Shown here: positions 21,695-27,923 of the stretch, in pieces | How positions within the stretch are numbered: the first letter of the stretch is position 1 | Layout: each line of letters starts with the position of its first letter | Sequence record: OQ689735.1 | Source of the DNA: Escherichia phage 4E10 | Reading direction: 5' to 3' (one strand) | Length of the DNA: 64,000 nt | Position numbers and translations under genes: made by a program | Notes under the pieces: model-generated | What the model saw: the letters and a program-made list of their open reading frames with translations, nothing else | The model's database searches: none | What the model was told of the DNA's origin: nothing

Positions 21695-21698
21695 CAAT

Positions 21699-21716
21699 GG
21701 GGACCGAAAGGTCCCC
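21699..21716. terminator. GAAA-tetraloop hairpin (GGGGACC-GAAA-GGUCCCC) between convergent gene 54 and alt-region genes
   Basis: 7-bp perfect GC-rich inverted repeat seen directly. Confidence 0.6.
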
Positions 21717-21722
21717 ATATTT

Positions 21723-22013
21723 TTATTTACGGAATGAAATAAAAGCAGCAACTGAAGCAACTAAACTGTCTTCAATATAAACTTCAATTTTTACCGGAGC
21801 TTCTGACTCAAATTTACCTGTTACTACACCTTGGAAAATGCTTTCAGTCTGTTCTGGCTTTGAAAAATTTTCAGAAGGAAAAATTCCAAACTTTTTATCT
21901 GTTCCAAAAATTTTGATAAATTCATCATAAACTGCTTCATTAAAAGCGTTATCAGCAGGAATAACGCCTTCAACTACAAGTTCTTGACCTAAAAAGCGTA
22001 AAGAAGATTTCAT
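21723..22013 (-). CDS. hypothetical protein downstream of alt paralogs (position of T4 alt.-3)
   Basis: 96-aa ORF with ATG and GAGGAA SD; preceded by early promoter. Confidence 0.6.
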   Translation of the reverse strand: MKSSLRFLGQELVVEGVIPADNAFNEAVYDEFIKIFGTDKKFGIFPSENFSKPEQTESIFQGVVTGKFESEAPVKIEVYIEDSLVASVAAFISFRK

Positions 22014-22044
22014 TTTGTGTTCCTCATGTTATGTCAGTAAGATT

Positions 22045-22074
22045 ATTATAACACAACACGAGGGACTTGTAAAC
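22045..22074 (-). promoter_or_regulatory. T4-type early promoter (-35 GTTTAC, 18-nt spacer, -10 TATAAT) on - strand
   Basis: minus-strand read GTTTACAAGTCCCTCGTGTTGTGTTATAAT; near-identical copy at 37840-37870. Confidence 0.55.
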
Positions 22075-24131
22075 TACATCTTGAACTTTTTAGACATTCC
22101 GTTGATGTTAACCAAAGAAGCCAAGATTTGAGAAACTTCGTTTTCCTCTTCTTTTGATTCTTCTACAAGGAATTGATTAAACCCAGCCATTGGACGAACT
22201 TCGCCAGTTTCCATTAGATGATCGCCATCATATACCGATTCTTCTAATTGTTCAGAAGGAGGAACGATTGTGCCTTCGATTAGATACTTGTTATAAGCAG
22301 TTTCTTTCATCATGTACGTGCTTACTTTATTAATCTTCAACAAAATTCCACGCGGTAGAATAACTTCAGCTTCTGATGGAAATCCCGATAAATGACCTGG
22401 AACGATAACTTTGATTCGCTCAGCCCCTTTAATTACCATACCTACGCTAGTTTCAGCATCTTCATTCGCATAAGCAGAATGACTACCCATATGCATCAAA
22501 TCTTCTGCATCAACAGAACCTTCTCCTTCGCCAGAAAATACTGCACCGGAATCATCTAGAGCCATATAGTTTTTACCATGCTCACCGAAGATATTTGGTT
22601 TAAGCGATGTGGATACGAAGTTCTTGAAATAGAACATTTTGTTTTCAATGTTATGACGCAAAGTTTTAAAGGTAACTTCTTGTCCACGATAAAGCGTAGT
22701 TCCTGGAGGAAGAACTGATCCTTTGGCGAATGCAGAATCCAGAGTCTCGATGTGCTTAATAGCTCTTTCCATGTATTCTTCACGGGTAGAATCTGGTTTA
22801 CCCAAAAGGAACGAGTTCATTTCAACATATGAATCTGCACAATAATCTTCAATTACATCAGATTCAGCCTGAGTCAGTCCTTTTGGAGTTACTTCGGTGC
22901 TTGCGTATTCATATGCCTGAGCAGCAGATTCATTAATCAATTTATAAATGCCATTCATGACAAATTGAATAATAGCTACCTTTTCGTCTGGTGTGGCTTT
23001 AGAACCTTTAACTAAATCATTGATAATTTTCTTAATAACATCAAAGCTATTAGAAATATTAATGTCAGCTAGATCGCTCAAAATTTTATCGGTTTTATAA
23101 TCAAAAAATTCTTTATTCTTTAAATATTCTTGAGAACCTTGATGTGTTATATCGCTCTGCAGTCTGATAGACGGATCACGTAAACGTGCATGGGCCAATG
23201 CAATATGATTTCGGAAGCTTTCTAGTTCATAATCGTTAGATTTAAAACGAGAAGCACTTCTCATACCACCGATAGCTCCTTTGCCGAAGTTTGAACCAAT
23301 CTGAATAACGCCAGAGTTCATTGGTCCTTCTGCTTTATATACCGGAACTTTAGATTCAAACTCTTGATATTTCTTAGCGGCGAAGCTATCACCCTGTAGC
23401 GAAGCATCGACAGTAGAATATTGAGCTTGTGCTGCTAATCGACGACTAATTTTAGTTTTCTGAATAACAGCTTGATCCGTGCGCTTATCATTTTCTAAAG
23501 CAATAGAAGCAGCAACAGCAACAGCTTTAGGAACAGCATTACCTGTTTTAACGTCTACATAAACATCACCAACCTTTGATTCAACTTTTGTGAATAACTC
23601 AGTTGAAATAGGAGGTACACCTGGAATGTCTTCTAAATTGGCATTTTTACGGTAAACCATAATATATGCATACTTTTTATCATAGTCCCAGATTTCCTTT
23701 AAAAGAACATATCGACCTGCTCCTTTAGTACGTACTAAACGGTCAGCAATAACTTGCATTTGACGAGCTGCGCCATTTGTTTTACTTTTTAGTACGCGGA
23801 ATAAGCATGCGTCGATTTTATACTGCTTCATTGTTTGAAGAGCAGTATCAAAAACCGCATTAATGACGCCAATTGGATTTCCACCCAAGTTTCTAAGTTT
23901 AACCAGCGATAATTTCTCGTTGACACCTATCATTACGATATGCATCATTTTATCGCCTGGCTTAACGTTTTTATTTGTATCACCACCAGAGGTGTATGTA
24001 CAAAATCTAAATCCAGGAAGCACACTTTCTTCGCCGGCTTGAATAGCAAAAATTTGTGGTATTTTATGCTTAGGATTTAAGTTAACAACCGGCGCCGAAG
24101 CGCCGTCAAATAATTCTGTAATAAGTTCCAT
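22074..24131 (-). CDS. Alt-like ADP-ribosyltransferase paralog (685 aa)
   Basis: N-terminal 200 aa near-identical to adjacent Alt; C-terminal ART domain with R (YRGQ), STS and ExE (EAEVILPRG) motifs. Confidence 0.85.
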   Translation of the reverse strand: MELITELFDGASAPVVNLNPKHKIPQIFAIQAGEESVLPGFRFCTYTSGGDTNKNVKPGDKMMHIVMIGVNEKLSLVKLRNLGGNPIGVINAVFDTALQTMKQYKIDACLFRVLKSKTNGAARQMQVIADRLVRTKGAGRYVLLKEIWDYDKKYAYIMVYRKNANLEDIPGVPPISTELFTKVESKVGDVYVDVKTGNAVPKAVAVAASIALENDKRTDQAVIQKTKISRRLAAQAQYSTVDASLQGDSFAAKKYQEFESKVPVYKAEGPMNSGVIQIGSNFGKGAIGGMRSASRFKSNDYELESFRNHIALAHARLRDPSIRLQSDITHQGSQEYLKNKEFFDYKTDKILSDLADINISNSFDVIKKIINDLVKGSKATPDEKVAIIQFVMNGIYKLINESAAQAYEYASTEVTPKGLTQAESDVIEDYCADSYVEMNSFLLGKPDSTREEYMERAIKHIETLDSAFAKGSVLPPGTTLYRGQEVTFKTLRHNIENKMFYFKNFVSTSLKPNIFGEHGKNYMALDDSGAVFSGEGEGSVDAEDLMHMGSHSAYANEDAETSVGMVIKGAERIKVIVPGHLSGFPSEAEVILPRGILLKINKVSTYMMKETAYNKYLIEGTIVPPSEQLEESVYDGDHLMETGEVRPMAGFNQFLVEESKEEENEVSQILASLVNINGMSKKFKM

Positions 24132-24134
24132 GAT

Positions 24135-26225
24135 TTATCCTTGAACGAACTTGTAAGGCATGTTTGTAATATCTATGCAAGACGCAATAATTCCAAGAGA
24201 TGATTCGACTTTCTGTTTAACATTTGATGAAACAAATGACGCAAAATCAACTCTGTCTTCTATATCACCTGTCATTGTAACCAATTCACCAGTTTCCATT
24301 AAATGGTCTCCGTCATAGATTACCGATTCGGTGAGTTCTTCTGTGGTCATAACTTCAGCTTGAATGAGTTTTGTATTATTAGATGTTGTTCCGTCATTAT
24401 TAGAAGCATCAGTTATTTTATTAACTTTGACCATCAATCCACGCGGTAGAATAACTTCAGCTTCTGTTGCTATTCCGAGACTTCCTGGATATACAACATT
24501 AACTTTATGAGCTCCATCAATTGCCCATCCTATTTGAACTTTAACGTATTCAGGATTTTCTTTATACGCTCTTATTTCGTTTGGATTAATAGTTATTCCT
24601 TCTTCATTTTTATCAACTGTTAATTCATTACGAGCTTCTGGTTCTAAAAGACCAATACCAGCATGTGTGATTCCAAAACGTCCAAAAATGATAGGAGTTA
24701 AAGAAGTAGATACAAAATTTCTGAAGTAGAACACTTTATTTTTAACTAACGCTTCATATATAGGAGCAGTCATACTTTGAGCACGATAAACTGTAATGCC
24801 TTCTGGTATACGGTCACCATTTTCAAAAGCTGAATCTAAGTTATTTATAGCAGATTCAATTTCTTTTTCACTCATTACATCATATCGTTCTGGATTGTAG
24901 CGGCCTAAAAGAAGATTATTGATGTCAGTATATCCTGAACCGCAATATTCTCTAATGCCACGCTTTTGCGATGGAGTATATTTAGAACCATCACGGGCAA
25001 TAGTAATATCAATCATTGGACCTGCACCAATTCCGGAAAAGCTATAAATCATTCGTTTGAGGAATTTAGTTTTTGCTGCGTTCCAAGAATTTTTAGTTAT
25101 TTCTTCCCAGACTTCATCTGGCTGCCCTTTACGAGTTTTATTATGTTTATCAAGCCAATTATCTTTATATTCTTCAAAGAATTGATTAACAGCTGCTGCG
25201 TATTTCTCTAAACATTTTATTGAAGTAGTTGGTTCATTTTTAATCGCATTAAGAATTACATCTTTAATTTTTTCAGAAACTTCATTAACCTCACTTTTTG
25301 AAAAGAATTTATAGTCATAGTGAAGTTCATCTGCGGTTCCTTCGGCAATGATTTTTGCTGCCTTAGTTTTAGAAGCTAATGAATTAATTCCAAGCTTCAT
25401 TTCTTCTGCTTCGGGAATTAAAGGAGCGGTAGCAGGTTTATTGAAATTAGCTGCGGTAGATTCATACTTCTGGAATAATTCACTTTCAAATCTAGAAGAT
25501 TCCAACGACTGACTTTGCGCAATTGCTCTACGTGAAATTTTAACTTTAACGATTACCGCTTGGTCAGAACGTTTATCATTTTCTTGCGCAATAGATGCTG
25601 CAATTGCCTCATTTTTAGTTACTTGGGCTCCAGTATCTTTATTGATATAAACATCACCGACCTTCGATTCAACTTTAGTAAAGAGCTCGGTACTAATTTC
25701 CGGAACTCCTGGAATGTCTTCTAGTGATACATTTTTGCGATGTATAAGAATATATGCATACTTTTTATCATAATCCCAGAGTTCCTTGAGAAGGACGTAT
25801 CTGCCACCTGAACGACTACGGATAAGTCTATCAGCAATAACTTGAATTTGTCGAGCTTGTCCAGCAGTTTTAGACTTAAGAATACGAAGCATACAAGCAT
25901 CAATTTTATATTGACGCATTGTTTGCATTGCAACAGTAAAAACTGAATTGATATAATTAATTGGGCTTGGACCAAGACCTTTTAATTTAGCAATTGAACC
26001 TTTAGCAGTTAATGTAAAAGGAACAATGTGCATCATTTTGTCGCCCATTTTTAAATCGCGATTAGTATCACCTCCAGATGTATATGTACATAAACGAAAG
26101 CCTGGTTGTTCAATTGCATCATCAACATGAACTGAAAAAATTTGTGGTATTTTCTTCTTTGGATTTAAGTTTGTAATCGGAAGAGTAGTATCTTCGTCAA
26201 ATAATTCTGTAATAAGTTCCATCAT
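24135..26225 (-). CDS. alt: Alt ADP-ribosyltransferase (packaged, modifies host RNA polymerase)
   Basis: 696-aa ORF; R (YRAQ), STS, ExE (EAEVILPRG) ART motifs; position next to ligase gene as in T4. Confidence 0.85.
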   Translation of the reverse strand: MMELITELFDEDTTLPITNLNPKKKIPQIFSVHVDDAIEQPGFRLCTYTSGGDTNRDLKMGDKMMHIVPFTLTAKGSIAKLKGLGPSPINYINSVFTVAMQTMRQYKIDACMLRILKSKTAGQARQIQVIADRLIRSRSGGRYVLLKELWDYDKKYAYILIHRKNVSLEDIPGVPEISTELFTKVESKVGDVYINKDTGAQVTKNEAIAASIAQENDKRSDQAVIVKVKISRRAIAQSQSLESSRFESELFQKYESTAANFNKPATAPLIPEAEEMKLGINSLASKTKAAKIIAEGTADELHYDYKFFSKSEVNEVSEKIKDVILNAIKNEPTTSIKCLEKYAAAVNQFFEEYKDNWLDKHNKTRKGQPDEVWEEITKNSWNAAKTKFLKRMIYSFSGIGAGPMIDITIARDGSKYTPSQKRGIREYCGSGYTDINNLLLGRYNPERYDVMSEKEIESAINNLDSAFENGDRIPEGITVYRAQSMTAPIYEALVKNKVFYFRNFVSTSLTPIIFGRFGITHAGIGLLEPEARNELTVDKNEEGITINPNEIRAYKENPEYVKVQIGWAIDGAHKVNVVYPGSLGIATEAEVILPRGLMVKVNKITDASNNDGTTSNNTKLIQAEVMTTEELTESVIYDGDHLMETGELVTMTGDIEDRVDFASFVSSNVKQKVESSLGIIASCIDITNMPYKFVQG

Positions 26226-26245
26226 AGCCTCTCTAGTGTTTATTC

Positions 26246-26253
26246 TATTTATA
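26246..26253 (-). promoter_or_regulatory. late promoter motif TATAAATA (- strand) upstream of alt
   Basis: tatttata on + strand, 20 nt upstream of alt ATG. Confidence 0.45.
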
Positions 26254-26258
26254 AAATT

Positions 26259-26276
26259 AAAGGCCCGAAGGCCTTT
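26259..26276 (-). terminator. hairpin AAAGGCC-CGAA-GGCCUUU between upstream small ORF and alt
   Basis: Inverted repeat aaaggcc...ggccttt seen directly. Confidence 0.5.
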
Positions 26277-26463
26277 AGTAATCTAGTGGTAAGAGAGTAC
26301 GATATATTTCAAACTTTGGTCCTTTTTCATAGGCATCAAATGTTTCTGTAAATTTATTGTAAGCATATGCATCTACAAATTCGAGAATGACTTGTGATAC
26401 AGAAGTAGAAACATCTCCACCTTCTTTTTGAGCAATGACAATTGTTTCTAAGTAAGCTTTCAT
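26275..26463 (-). CDS. hypothetical small acidic protein
   Basis: 62-aa ORF, ATG start overlapping ligase stop (ATGA-type coupling). Confidence 0.55.
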   Translation of the reverse strand: MKAYLETIVIAQKEGGDVSTSVSQVILEFVDAYAYNKFTETFDAYEKGPKFEIYRTLLPLDY

Positions 26464-27923
26464 AAACCAGTTACCTCATGAAAATCGCCAAATACATCCT
26501 CGAATGTATTAGCTTTAGTTTTATCTTCACGTAAACGAATCGCAATCGGAAGAAATAATTTAACGTAATCAGTGCGGCCATCAGATTTTAACCAACCGTT
26601 GCATTCGCACTCTAGAATTTTTCCAATATAATAATTTTGGTTTTCCATAATGCGAGTACGGTCAAGTTCATGCGATTTTACACCAGCTTTATCTTTTAAG
26701 CCTGAACCAGCATTTACTTTAATTTTTCCACACTCTGACTCAAGAATAAATCCACCCGCTTTAGTAGGGTCTTTACGGTGAGGATAAATTCCTACAATTT
26801 TTAAATCAACATCAATTATTTCTTTAAATTTATAAAGATTTTTTGAACGAGCATTTTCCCATAATCCATCGATATTTTTGAGAATAATACCTTCAAGACC
26901 TTGGTCAATATACTTTTTATAAATTACCTTAGCTTCATCTAGGTTATTTACTACCTGGTTTTCAATTAAAATTACTTTATCATAACCTGATGTCATTTGT
27001 TCTAGTTTAGAAAAACGTACATCATATTTCAAACGAAATGCAGGAAGACCGTATATTTCTACCAACGGGACATAATCCCAGACCTGAAACTTCATGCATT
27101 GAGCTTCTTTTTCAGAAATGGTTCCCTTTAAAGATTTATTAGCGATTCCATTAGAAGTAGTACGTGATTCAGCTACTTCGGCGAATTCTTTAGCTTTACT
27201 AATTTCAGGATAAGCATCAAAAAGAAAATCTAGGCCTTCTGGTTCCTTTTCAACTTGCTCATGGTATACCAATTCGCCATCAATTAACACACCTTCTGGA
27301 TGAATCTGGCGAGCTTCTGCAGTCATTTTGATTAACTCTTCCTTGAGAAGATCTAATCCTAGATATTCATTACCAGCTCGTGATAAAAGACGAACATCAT
27401 CTAATTCATCACCTCTGACTTCAGCAAAGCACCGAGCTCCATCAGCTTTTAATTGGGCAAAGGCTGGAAATTTGATATTCTTATTAATGCCTTTTTCATC
27501 ATAAGAACTTGCCAGCATTTGAGGTTGTTCAGGAATTAAACCTGGCCAAACTTTGTTTGCAATAGATACTGATGCACCACATTCAAGGTCTCGCATCATC
27601 ACCCGACGCAAAACTTCAACATCATCTTTTTTACCGTCAGCAATATATCCAGTTAATTCCTCAATTGCCGCATTTCCGGTCAATTTCCGAGTAGCTAACG
27701 TGAATTCAATGAAGTCAAGCATATCGGTAAGAGTCAACATTCCAAAACTCTGGGTAGCAATACCAGGTTTAGGCCATTTCTTGATATAATACTGTAACCC
27801 ACGAGAATAAGTCAGACGATATACTCGTTTAAGTAATTCATTATCTTTATTCTTTTCAAGAATTGCTTGCTTCTGCTTAGTTGAACCAATAGATGCTATT
27901 TCGTTCAGAATTTTAAGAATCAT
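26460..27923 (-). CDS. 30: ATP-dependent DNA ligase gp30
   Basis: 487-aa ORF; sequence MILKILNEIASIGSTKQKQAILEKNKDNELLKRVYRLTYSRGLQYYIKK... matches T4 DNA ligase from memory; KADG adenylation motif. Confidence 0.97.
   Translation of the reverse strand: MILKILNEIASIGSTKQKQAILEKNKDNELLKRVYRLTYSRGLQYYIKKWPKPGIATQSFGMLTLTDMLDFIEFTLATRKLTGNAAIEELTGYIADGKKDDVEVLRRVMMRDLECGASVSIANKVWPGLIPEQPQMLASSYDEKGINKNIKFPAFAQLKADGARCFAEVRGDELDDVRLLSRAGNEYLGLDLLKEELIKMTAEARQIHPEGVLIDGELVYHEQVEKEPEGLDFLFDAYPEISKAKEFAEVAESRTTSNGIANKSLKGTISEKEAQCMKFQVWDYVPLVEIYGLPAFRLKYDVRFSKLEQMTSGYDKVILIENQVVNNLDEAKVIYKKYIDQGLEGIILKNIDGLWENARSKNLYKFKEIIDVDLKIVGIYPHRKDPTKAGGFILESECGKIKVNAGSGLKDKAGVKSHELDRTRIMENQNYYIGKILECECNGWLKSDGRTDYVKLFLPIAIRLREDKTKANTFEDVFGDFHEVTGL

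Follow-up and report, generated by a model that had tools for sequence, protein, structure and literature searches.

Organization of the altA–altB locus and its predicted products

In this study, we analysed a window of 64,000 nucleotides (nt) from Escherichia phage 4E10 (sequence record OQ689735.1), of the Tequatrovirus (T4/T2-like) genome type, and focused on two tandem genes of the Alt family of ADP-ribosyltransferases (ARTs), here designated altA and altB. Both genes lie on the minus strand, as do all features given below unless stated otherwise. The altA gene occupies positions 26225–24135 (696 amino acids (aa) when read from the first ATG, or 695 aa from the more probable start at 26222) and altB occupies 24131–22074 (685 aa), the gap between the altA stop and the altB start being 3 nt. 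The pair is located between gene 30 (DNA ligase, 27923–26460) and alt.1 (26463–26275) on one side and alt.-3 (DUF5498, 22013–21723) and gene 54 on the other; the baseplate genes 54 and 48 lie beyond the pair, on the opposite strand and convergent to alt.-3. The 4.8 kb region 21700–26500 matched 541 phage records, 299 of which cover at least 80% of it, and its nucleotide identity to relatives was 97–98% among the matches listed. In RefSeq relatives, two consecutive genes for 'Alt-like RNA polymerase ADP-ribosyltransferase' are annotated at the position of altA–altB, and alt duplications in several T4-like phages were listed by Nolan et al. 2006. The altA/altB duplication is already known and routinely annotated, the window being another instance with 97–100% identity to database entries. 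The altA gene is a T2-type Alt ('A2' allele), with 98% identity to the T2 protein across the central 350 aa and 70.7% overall identity to T4 Alt.

Compared by BLASTP over their full length, the altA and altB proteins showed 41% identity (E 2e-158). The identity was 65% in aa 1–240 (72–80% in the best 25-aa windows), 11–15% in aa 241–430, 31% in the ART domain and 38% in the C-terminal tail, which includes the conserved block ESV(I)YDGDHLMETGE. The arrangement of conserved ends around a divergent middle, proposed in a first-pass annotation of this DNA, was borne out by these values, but its description of the N-terminal 200 aa as near-identical was an overstatement, given 65% identity. The N-terminal domain of altA (25506–26204, about aa 8–240), which the mature protein would keep, shares 99% identity with T4 Alt and 65% with altB, and its counterpart in altB (23418–24113, aa 7–238) is an alpha/beta domain modelled with a predicted local distance difference test score (pLDDT) of 70–90. 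The middle segment of altB (22878–23417, aa 239–418) is predicted to be all-helical. Between A-type and B-type middle segments no homology was detectable by hhalign (probability 0.35%); the profiles compared were shallow, and a common origin is still possible.

Three identical nucleotide blocks are shared by the two genes: 29 nt (24438–24466 and 22347–22375) in the codons for EAEVILPRG, 27 nt (26196–26222 and 24105–24131) in the two start regions and 24 nt (25749–25772 and 23661–23684) in the codons for YDKKYAYI. In a simulation in which the amino-acid alignment and codon usage were held fixed, a longest run of at least 29 nt between the paralogs had a probability of 0.027, and the expected number of runs of 20 nt or more was 0.57; the identical blocks are only marginally beyond chance, given the amino-acid conservation and codon usage. 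Synonymous sites were saturated, with a same-codon fraction of 0.52 against 0.48 expected and a synonymous divergence (dS) of 1.4–1.7, indicating that the duplication is old. Recent gene conversion was also considered for the conserved N-termini in the window, and was rejected because of this saturation.

Both proteins carry the ART domain PF03496 (ADPrib_exo_Tox), with scores of 129 bits (1.8e-37) for altA and 72.7 bits (3.2e-20) for altB against a curated cut-off of 23.4 bits, and both match phrog_802 end to end (residues 1–695 of altA and 1–685 of altB). Precomputed Pfam hits for close relatives comprised PF26846 (Tevenvirinae_ADPRT) in addition to PF03496. The motifs of altA are YR481AQ (R481, 24783–24785), S506-T-S508 (24702–24710) and E588-A-E590 (24456–24464), the last lying within EAEVILPRG; those of altB, in an ART domain at 22248–22877, are YR482GQ (R482, 22686–22688), S507-T-S509 (22605–22613) and E587-A-E589 (22365–22373). 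An alignment of 16 diverse members of the family showed no variation in the R, STS and ExE motifs, and the Arg and ExE were in register with the catalytic residues known from the structures of C3-like and BECa ARTs (YRG... and (Q/E)YE... of 4xsg and 5h03). As anticipated in the first-pass annotation, both copies appear catalytically equipped, neither of them lacking a residue that aligns with the solved R-S-E ARTs. The AlphaFold2 model of altB (mean pLDDT 75.7) matched Vis, C3, CDTa, iota Ia, VIP2 and Certhrax with a Foldseek probability of 1.0; template modelling (TM) scores, normalized by target length, were 0.53–0.63 for the single-domain Vis, C3 and Plx2a and 0.29–0.34 for two-domain toxins. 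The model indicates that the fold of the altB ART domain is C3/VIP2/iota-like. Sequence searches of the PDB with altA and altB gave matches confined to the ART domain, and scans with NCBIfam and PADLOC gave zero hits for either protein. We predict that altA and altB are arginine-type (R/S-T-S/E-x-E) mono-ADP-ribosyltransferases of the Alt family.

The conserved ends of the two proteins correspond to the parts of T4 Alt that are processed during head assembly. T4 Alt is present in about 40 copies in the prohead core and mature head (PMC5694885, PMC9026906), and head mass spectrometry showed that it is cleaved by the prohead protease gp21 after ITE-6 and LTE-619 (Ali et al. 2017, PMC5694885), the latter cut removing 63 C-terminal residues (PMC5694885). 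It is injected alongside the DNA and ADP-ribosylates the alpha subunit of RNA polymerase (Arg265) and other host proteins. Predicted gp21 sites were found at aligned positions in altA (ITE and LTE) and altB (ITE and LEE). The N-terminal propeptide MELITE (24114–24131 in altB, with the ITE4–6 motif) is the same in the two genes at both the amino-acid and the nucleotide level. The predicted C-terminal propeptide of altA (24138–24326, aa 634–696) follows LTE631–633, a motif as in T4 LTE-619; in altB, the motif LEE629–631 (22239–22247) and the predicted propeptide (aa 632–685) together occupy 22077–22247. Across the family, the Glu of the cleavage motif and the Ser that follows are invariant or nearly so, and the C-propeptide, with an invariant Y-D-G-D, E, G-E, two Phe and terminal K-F, is better conserved than much of the enzyme. 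The invariant tail residues of altB are E631, Y634, D635, G636, D637, E641, G643 and E644. Residues 629–685 of altB had an AlphaFold pLDDT below 50 and were modelled as disordered. We infer that the shared ends represent a head-packaging and processing module, and that the middle and ART domain form an exchangeable effector cassette. Packaging throughout the family fits with the abundance of a divergent single Alt homolog in the virions of a Klebsiella T4-like phage.

The Alt N-domain was also observed outside this architecture. In four proteins (P0180, P0182 (1142 aa), P0183 and P0188), it forms the first 140–220 aa, and the downstream part is without a detectable ART, Pfam or PHROG domain; these may represent the same delivery domain joined to other cargo. 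A search of BFVD with the model of altB aa 1–470 gave weak structural matches (E 1e-6 to 1e-3, 12–16% identity) to large uncharacterized phage proteins from Erwinia phage phiEa2809, Dickeya phage RC-2014, Vibrio phage VP-1 and Agrobacterium phage Atu_ph07, one match being a zeta-toxin-domain protein. These modelled similarities hint that the fold of the Alt N-domain could be a wider module among internal or ejected proteins of myoviruses.

Upstream of altA, we identified a T4-type late promoter core, TATAAATA (26246–26253), located 23 nt upstream of the probable altA start, and an identical element is present upstream of T4 alt. It is preceded by a terminator-like hairpin, UAAAGGCC-UUCG-GGCCUUUA (26258–26277; 8 bp, free energy −12.2 kcal/mol, z −2.55), which overlaps the alt.1 stop codon (26275–26277) and is followed by AUUUUAU; T4 carries the identical UUCG hairpin sequence upstream of alt. 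The first-pass annotation had taken the promoter and hairpin together as consistent with late expression of a packaged protein. Both elements are present, and the promoter agrees with the documented status of T4 alt as a late gene with a head-packaged product, but the hairpin is terminator-like and is itself no late-expression signal; it would insulate alt from early or middle transcription arriving from upstream. Translation of altA can start at a double ATGATG (26220–26225), as in T4. The Shine-Dalgarno (SD) sequence GAGAGG (26228–26233) is 5 nt from the second ATG (26222); since this spacing fits the second ATG, the altA product is probably of 695 aa, starting with MELITE as annotated for T4, and the listed open reading frame of 696 aa probably has one extra Met. 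The altB gene has an SD sequence AAGGA 6 nt upstream of its start, within the 3′ end of altA.

A second TATAAATA was found inside altA (24842–24849, near aa 459), the altB start lying 711 nt further downstream. Neither T4 alt (the T4-type allele) nor altB contains this element, which could be either a chance occurrence or an internal late promoter serving altB. Directly after the altB stop TAG, a strong early-type promoter, TTTACA-17-TATAAT with a TG extension (22045–22073), matches at 11/12 positions; it would drive alt.-3, probably an early gene directly downstream of the late unit, and would mark the downstream end of this unit. The space between alt.-3 and gene 54, which converge, holds a GC-rich 9-bp hairpin flanked by T-runs (21697–21718, both strands) that looks like a bidirectional terminator.

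Persistence of altB and exchange of effector cassettes

At a protein identity of at least 80%, altB was present in 402 phage records, and phage T2 has the same altA–altB pair as the window. A T4-like stump was found in 94/502 records. The T4 record attributes alt.-1 and alt.-2 to an old duplication that involved the initial portion of alt. We found that they are 95–96% identical to altB residues 1–56 and 62–116, respectively, and that the remaining approximately 1.7 kb of altB, after codon ~116, is missing from T4. Since alt.-1 and alt.-2 match altB aa 1–116 and the rest is deleted, altB represents the intact form of a gene lost by T4. The T4 deletion joins codon ~116 to the last few codons of altB (L002 466–669 compared with window positions 22074–22100 and ~23780), and T4 alt.-2 reads on into the alt.-3 promoter region (...LKSSKCSLQVPRVVL, then the stop). 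The deletion and the break between alt.-1 and alt.-2 indicate two separate lesions in the T4 copy.

Compared with T2 and W143, altB showed a dS of 0.17–0.20 and a ratio of non-synonymous to synonymous divergence (dN/dS) of 0.03–0.05, which indicates strong purifying selection. Every segment of altB was constrained, including the middle, with a dN/dS of 0.07–0.08. A gene 98.5% identical to the altB of the window was also noted in PV654520.1, 'Pseudomonas phage vB_PSGBLB0006' (host P. aeruginosa); this host is unexpected for a Tequatrovirus, and the record may have been mislabelled or contaminated.

Among the relatives, at least five independent single genes were A/B hybrids, each with one clean switch from A to B. 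The database proteins P0003, P0004, P0005 and P0007 resemble altA as far as about residues 51, 109, 183 and 221, respectively, and altB from there on, and the gene for each of them directly follows alt.1. In the two contigs that reach further downstream (L004 and L005), the hybrid is the sole alt gene between alt.1 and alt.-3. A single hybrid gene is also present in the complete isolate genomes of ECML-134, vB_EcoM_SCS4 and Yersinia phage PST, in which the B type is the only Alt-family effector; in ECML-134, the crossover interval is the 24-nt YDKKYAYI block. The identical blocks had been proposed in the first-pass annotation as substrates for recombination. Recombination between the paralogs is indeed recorded in the hybrids, but the five crossovers observed lie at five different points within the homeologous N-terminal 240 codons, and none is at the EAEVILPRG block that had been cited. 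The hybrids, which occur in viable phages, show that altA and altB have repeatedly undergone unequal crossing-over. The possibility that the hybrids are assembly chimeras was rejected, as they are carried by complete isolate genomes (ECML-134, SCS4 and PST) and by a k99 MEGAHIT contig; the longest A/B identity of 29 nt and the five differing crossover points also count against it.

Exchange was also evident within altA itself. Compared with T4 Alt, the altA product is 99% identical in the N-domain and C-tail, but the identity falls to 36% for the middle segment and 59% for the ART domain. The variable effector cassette, composed of the middle and the ART domain, lies at 24368–25502 (gene nt ~720–1855). 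Nucleotide identity to T4 was 95–100% before the cassette, 27–80% inside and 95–98% after it, and dS was >1.1 inside the cassette and 0.09–0.25 in the arms. The confinement of both the collapse of identity and the rise of dS to the cassette indicates that the segment was replaced as a unit rather than that it evolved faster locally. The T2-type ART segment is ~90% nucleotide-identical to alt of the Dhakavirus Bp7, which itself carries a tandem pair (L009 2766–6905) composed of T2-type and T4-type genes, not A plus B: Bp7 alt is 66% identical to altA of the window, and Bp7 alt′ shares 59% identity with T4 Alt. The two Tequatrovirus 'alleles' are thus paralogs in Dhakavirus. At least three Alt effector lineages are in circulation, and they were found as T4-type plus stump in T4, T4-type plus B in W143, T2-type plus B in T2 and the window, an A/B hybrid alone in ECML-134, and T2-type plus T4-type in Bp7.

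Proposed role of altB and alternative explanations

Taken together, we consider it likely that altA and altB form a late unit encoding modular, packaged ARTs, and that altB provides a second injected ART whose range of targets most likely differs from that of altA. According to this model, the two genes would be transcribed late from the single TATAAATA promoter upstream of altA, with the hairpin shielding the unit from the upstream ligase and alt.1 genes, and would be translated independently. Both products would share one plan: the 6-residue N-propeptide MELITE with the gp21 motif I-T-E at its end, an alpha/beta N-domain of ~230 aa, a helical middle of ~180 aa, a C3/VIP2-like ART domain, and an L-x-E motif, after which comes a C-propeptide of 54–63 aa that is conserved and probably disordered (YDGDxxxETGE...KF). 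The shared ends would carry both proteins into the prohead core, where gp21 would trim altA and altB to about 70 and 69 kDa, respectively; both would then enter the host along with the DNA and modify host proteins by ADP-ribosylation of arginines. The packaging, injection and modification steps come from the literature on T4 Alt alone, and are extended to T2-type altA and to altB by motifs, architecture and context. It is plausible, judging from their divergence, that the middle segments specify different targets for A and B.

Several observations weigh against this model. The virion presence, gp21 cleavage, injection and activity of altB are deduced from motifs, architecture and context, and our searches of the literature turned up no work on what the second Alt paralog does or on whether it is part of the virion. 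The sole basis for different targets of A and B is sequence divergence, namely the middle that cannot be aligned and the 31% identity of the ART domains. No separate late promoter is evident for altB, for which co-transcription with altA is assumed. In addition, altB is dispensable, at least on laboratory hosts, because T4 and its close relatives do without it.

This dispensability, together with the non-essential nature of Alt itself in T4 and the 94/502 related records that keep just the alt.-1/alt.-2 stump, raises the question of whether altB is a redundant or decaying duplicate without a function of its own, heading to the pseudogene state of T4. We consider this very improbable. The gene is intact in about 400 records, and both its low dN/dS, at a dS of ~0.2, and the invariance of every catalytic and cleavage residue speak against decay; the paralogs are old, as judged by saturated dS, yet both persist, and the B effector cassette is the one retained in ECML-134, SCS4 and PST. 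Alternatively, altB might be an active but unpackaged ART, modifying proteins late in the producing cell in the manner of the Mod enzymes. T4 has the non-packaged ART paralogs ModA and ModB, and we found no proteomic evidence for B in virions, but altB keeps MELITE, the L-x-E motif and an invariant C-propeptide corresponding to the one that is cut from T4 Alt by gp21 inside the prohead; moreover, its architecture is that of phrog_802 over the full length, in contrast to the short Mod enzymes, and viable hybrids place the B effector behind an A N-domain. An unpackaged altB thus appears improbable.

A further explanation, which we regard as unlikely, is that A and B share targets, the duplication raising dose or robustness and the divergent middle being a neutral linker. 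Such sharing would agree with the arginine-type ExE motif and identical EAEVILPRG strand of both proteins and with the promiscuity of T4 Alt, which modifies RNA polymerase alpha and other host proteins. However, the middles are under purifying selection within each lineage (dN/dS 0.07–0.08), indicating that they are not neutral linkers, and those of A and B are not detectably homologous; the ART domains have also diverged, to 31% identity. The T4-type, T2-type and B cassettes are maintained and shuffled among phages, for which distinct functions are the easier explanation.

Returning to altB as a second injected ART, we tentatively suggest a more specific scheme, which is possible but carries less of our confidence than the model as a whole. 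In this scheme, altB would be a virion-delivered second ART that acts on host targets of its own and might counter a defence or toxin that is missing from the laboratory hosts of T4, and the alt locus would be a cassette-exchange system, in which the arms load the heads and also serve as homology arms to swap, fuse or drop effectors of the T4, T2 and B types.

Alt is the textbook enzyme injected with phage DNA, and nearly all work on it was carried out with T4. The present comparison shows that T4 is atypical in having lost the second gene, and suggests that most T-even relatives, including T2, would inject two different ARTs; some T-even relatives carry a B-type effector alone. If the targets of altB are distinct, the T4 model would understate the complexity of the earliest host takeover in most T-even phages. 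In addition, the conserved ends would offer a natural scaffold by which foreign cargo could be loaded into T-even heads. For specialists, the by-products of this analysis are that T4 is without a conserved, probably injected second ART, and that the alt locus appears to behave as exchangeable cassettes between conserved packaging arms.

Comparison with known systems

The closest characterized system is T4 Alt (gpAlt, NP_049811.1), a head-packaged, injected NAD:arginine mono-ADP-ribosyltransferase whose locus has the order ligase, alt.1, alt, ..., alt.-3 and gene 54, as in the window. It shares with altA the upstream hairpin, TATAAATA and ATGATG, the R/STS/ExE residues, the ITE and LTE motifs, and 99% identity in the N-domain and C-propeptide; it differs in having EME where altA has EAE and in its length of 682 aa, compared with 695/696 aa for altA. 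The identity of T4 Alt to altB is 41%. The T4 remnants alt.-1 and alt.-2 (NP_049810.1 and NP_049809.1) are broken by a stop or restart and have lost codons ~117 to the end, whereas altB is intact with a full ART domain. The pairs of T2 (XUQ82852/XUQ82853), Shfl2, HY01, RB3 and other phages show 97–100% protein identity with the same order and spacing, and no substantive difference was observed between them and the pair of the window.

ModA and ModB of T4 are paralogous R-S-E ARTs of the same phage group, belonging to the Alt/VIP2 clade. They are short, early-expressed and not packaged, and lack the N-domain, middle and propeptides. The bacterial toxins C3 exoenzyme, VIP2, iota toxin Ia, CDTa and Vis have the same ART fold, with the catalytic Arg and (E/Q)-x-E aligned, but share 13–19% identity and lack the Alt N-domain. 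Their delivery is also different: the bacterial toxins are secreted or enter via binary-toxin B components, whereas Alt is delivered via phage head packaging. In this respect, the Alt proteins resemble the T4 internal proteins IPI–III, which enter the prohead core, undergo cleavage by gp21 after L/I-x-E and are ejected together with the DNA. IPI–III carry only an N-terminal capsid targeting sequence of 10–20 residues, whereas the Alt proteins combine a 6-residue N-propeptide with a long, conserved C-propeptide.

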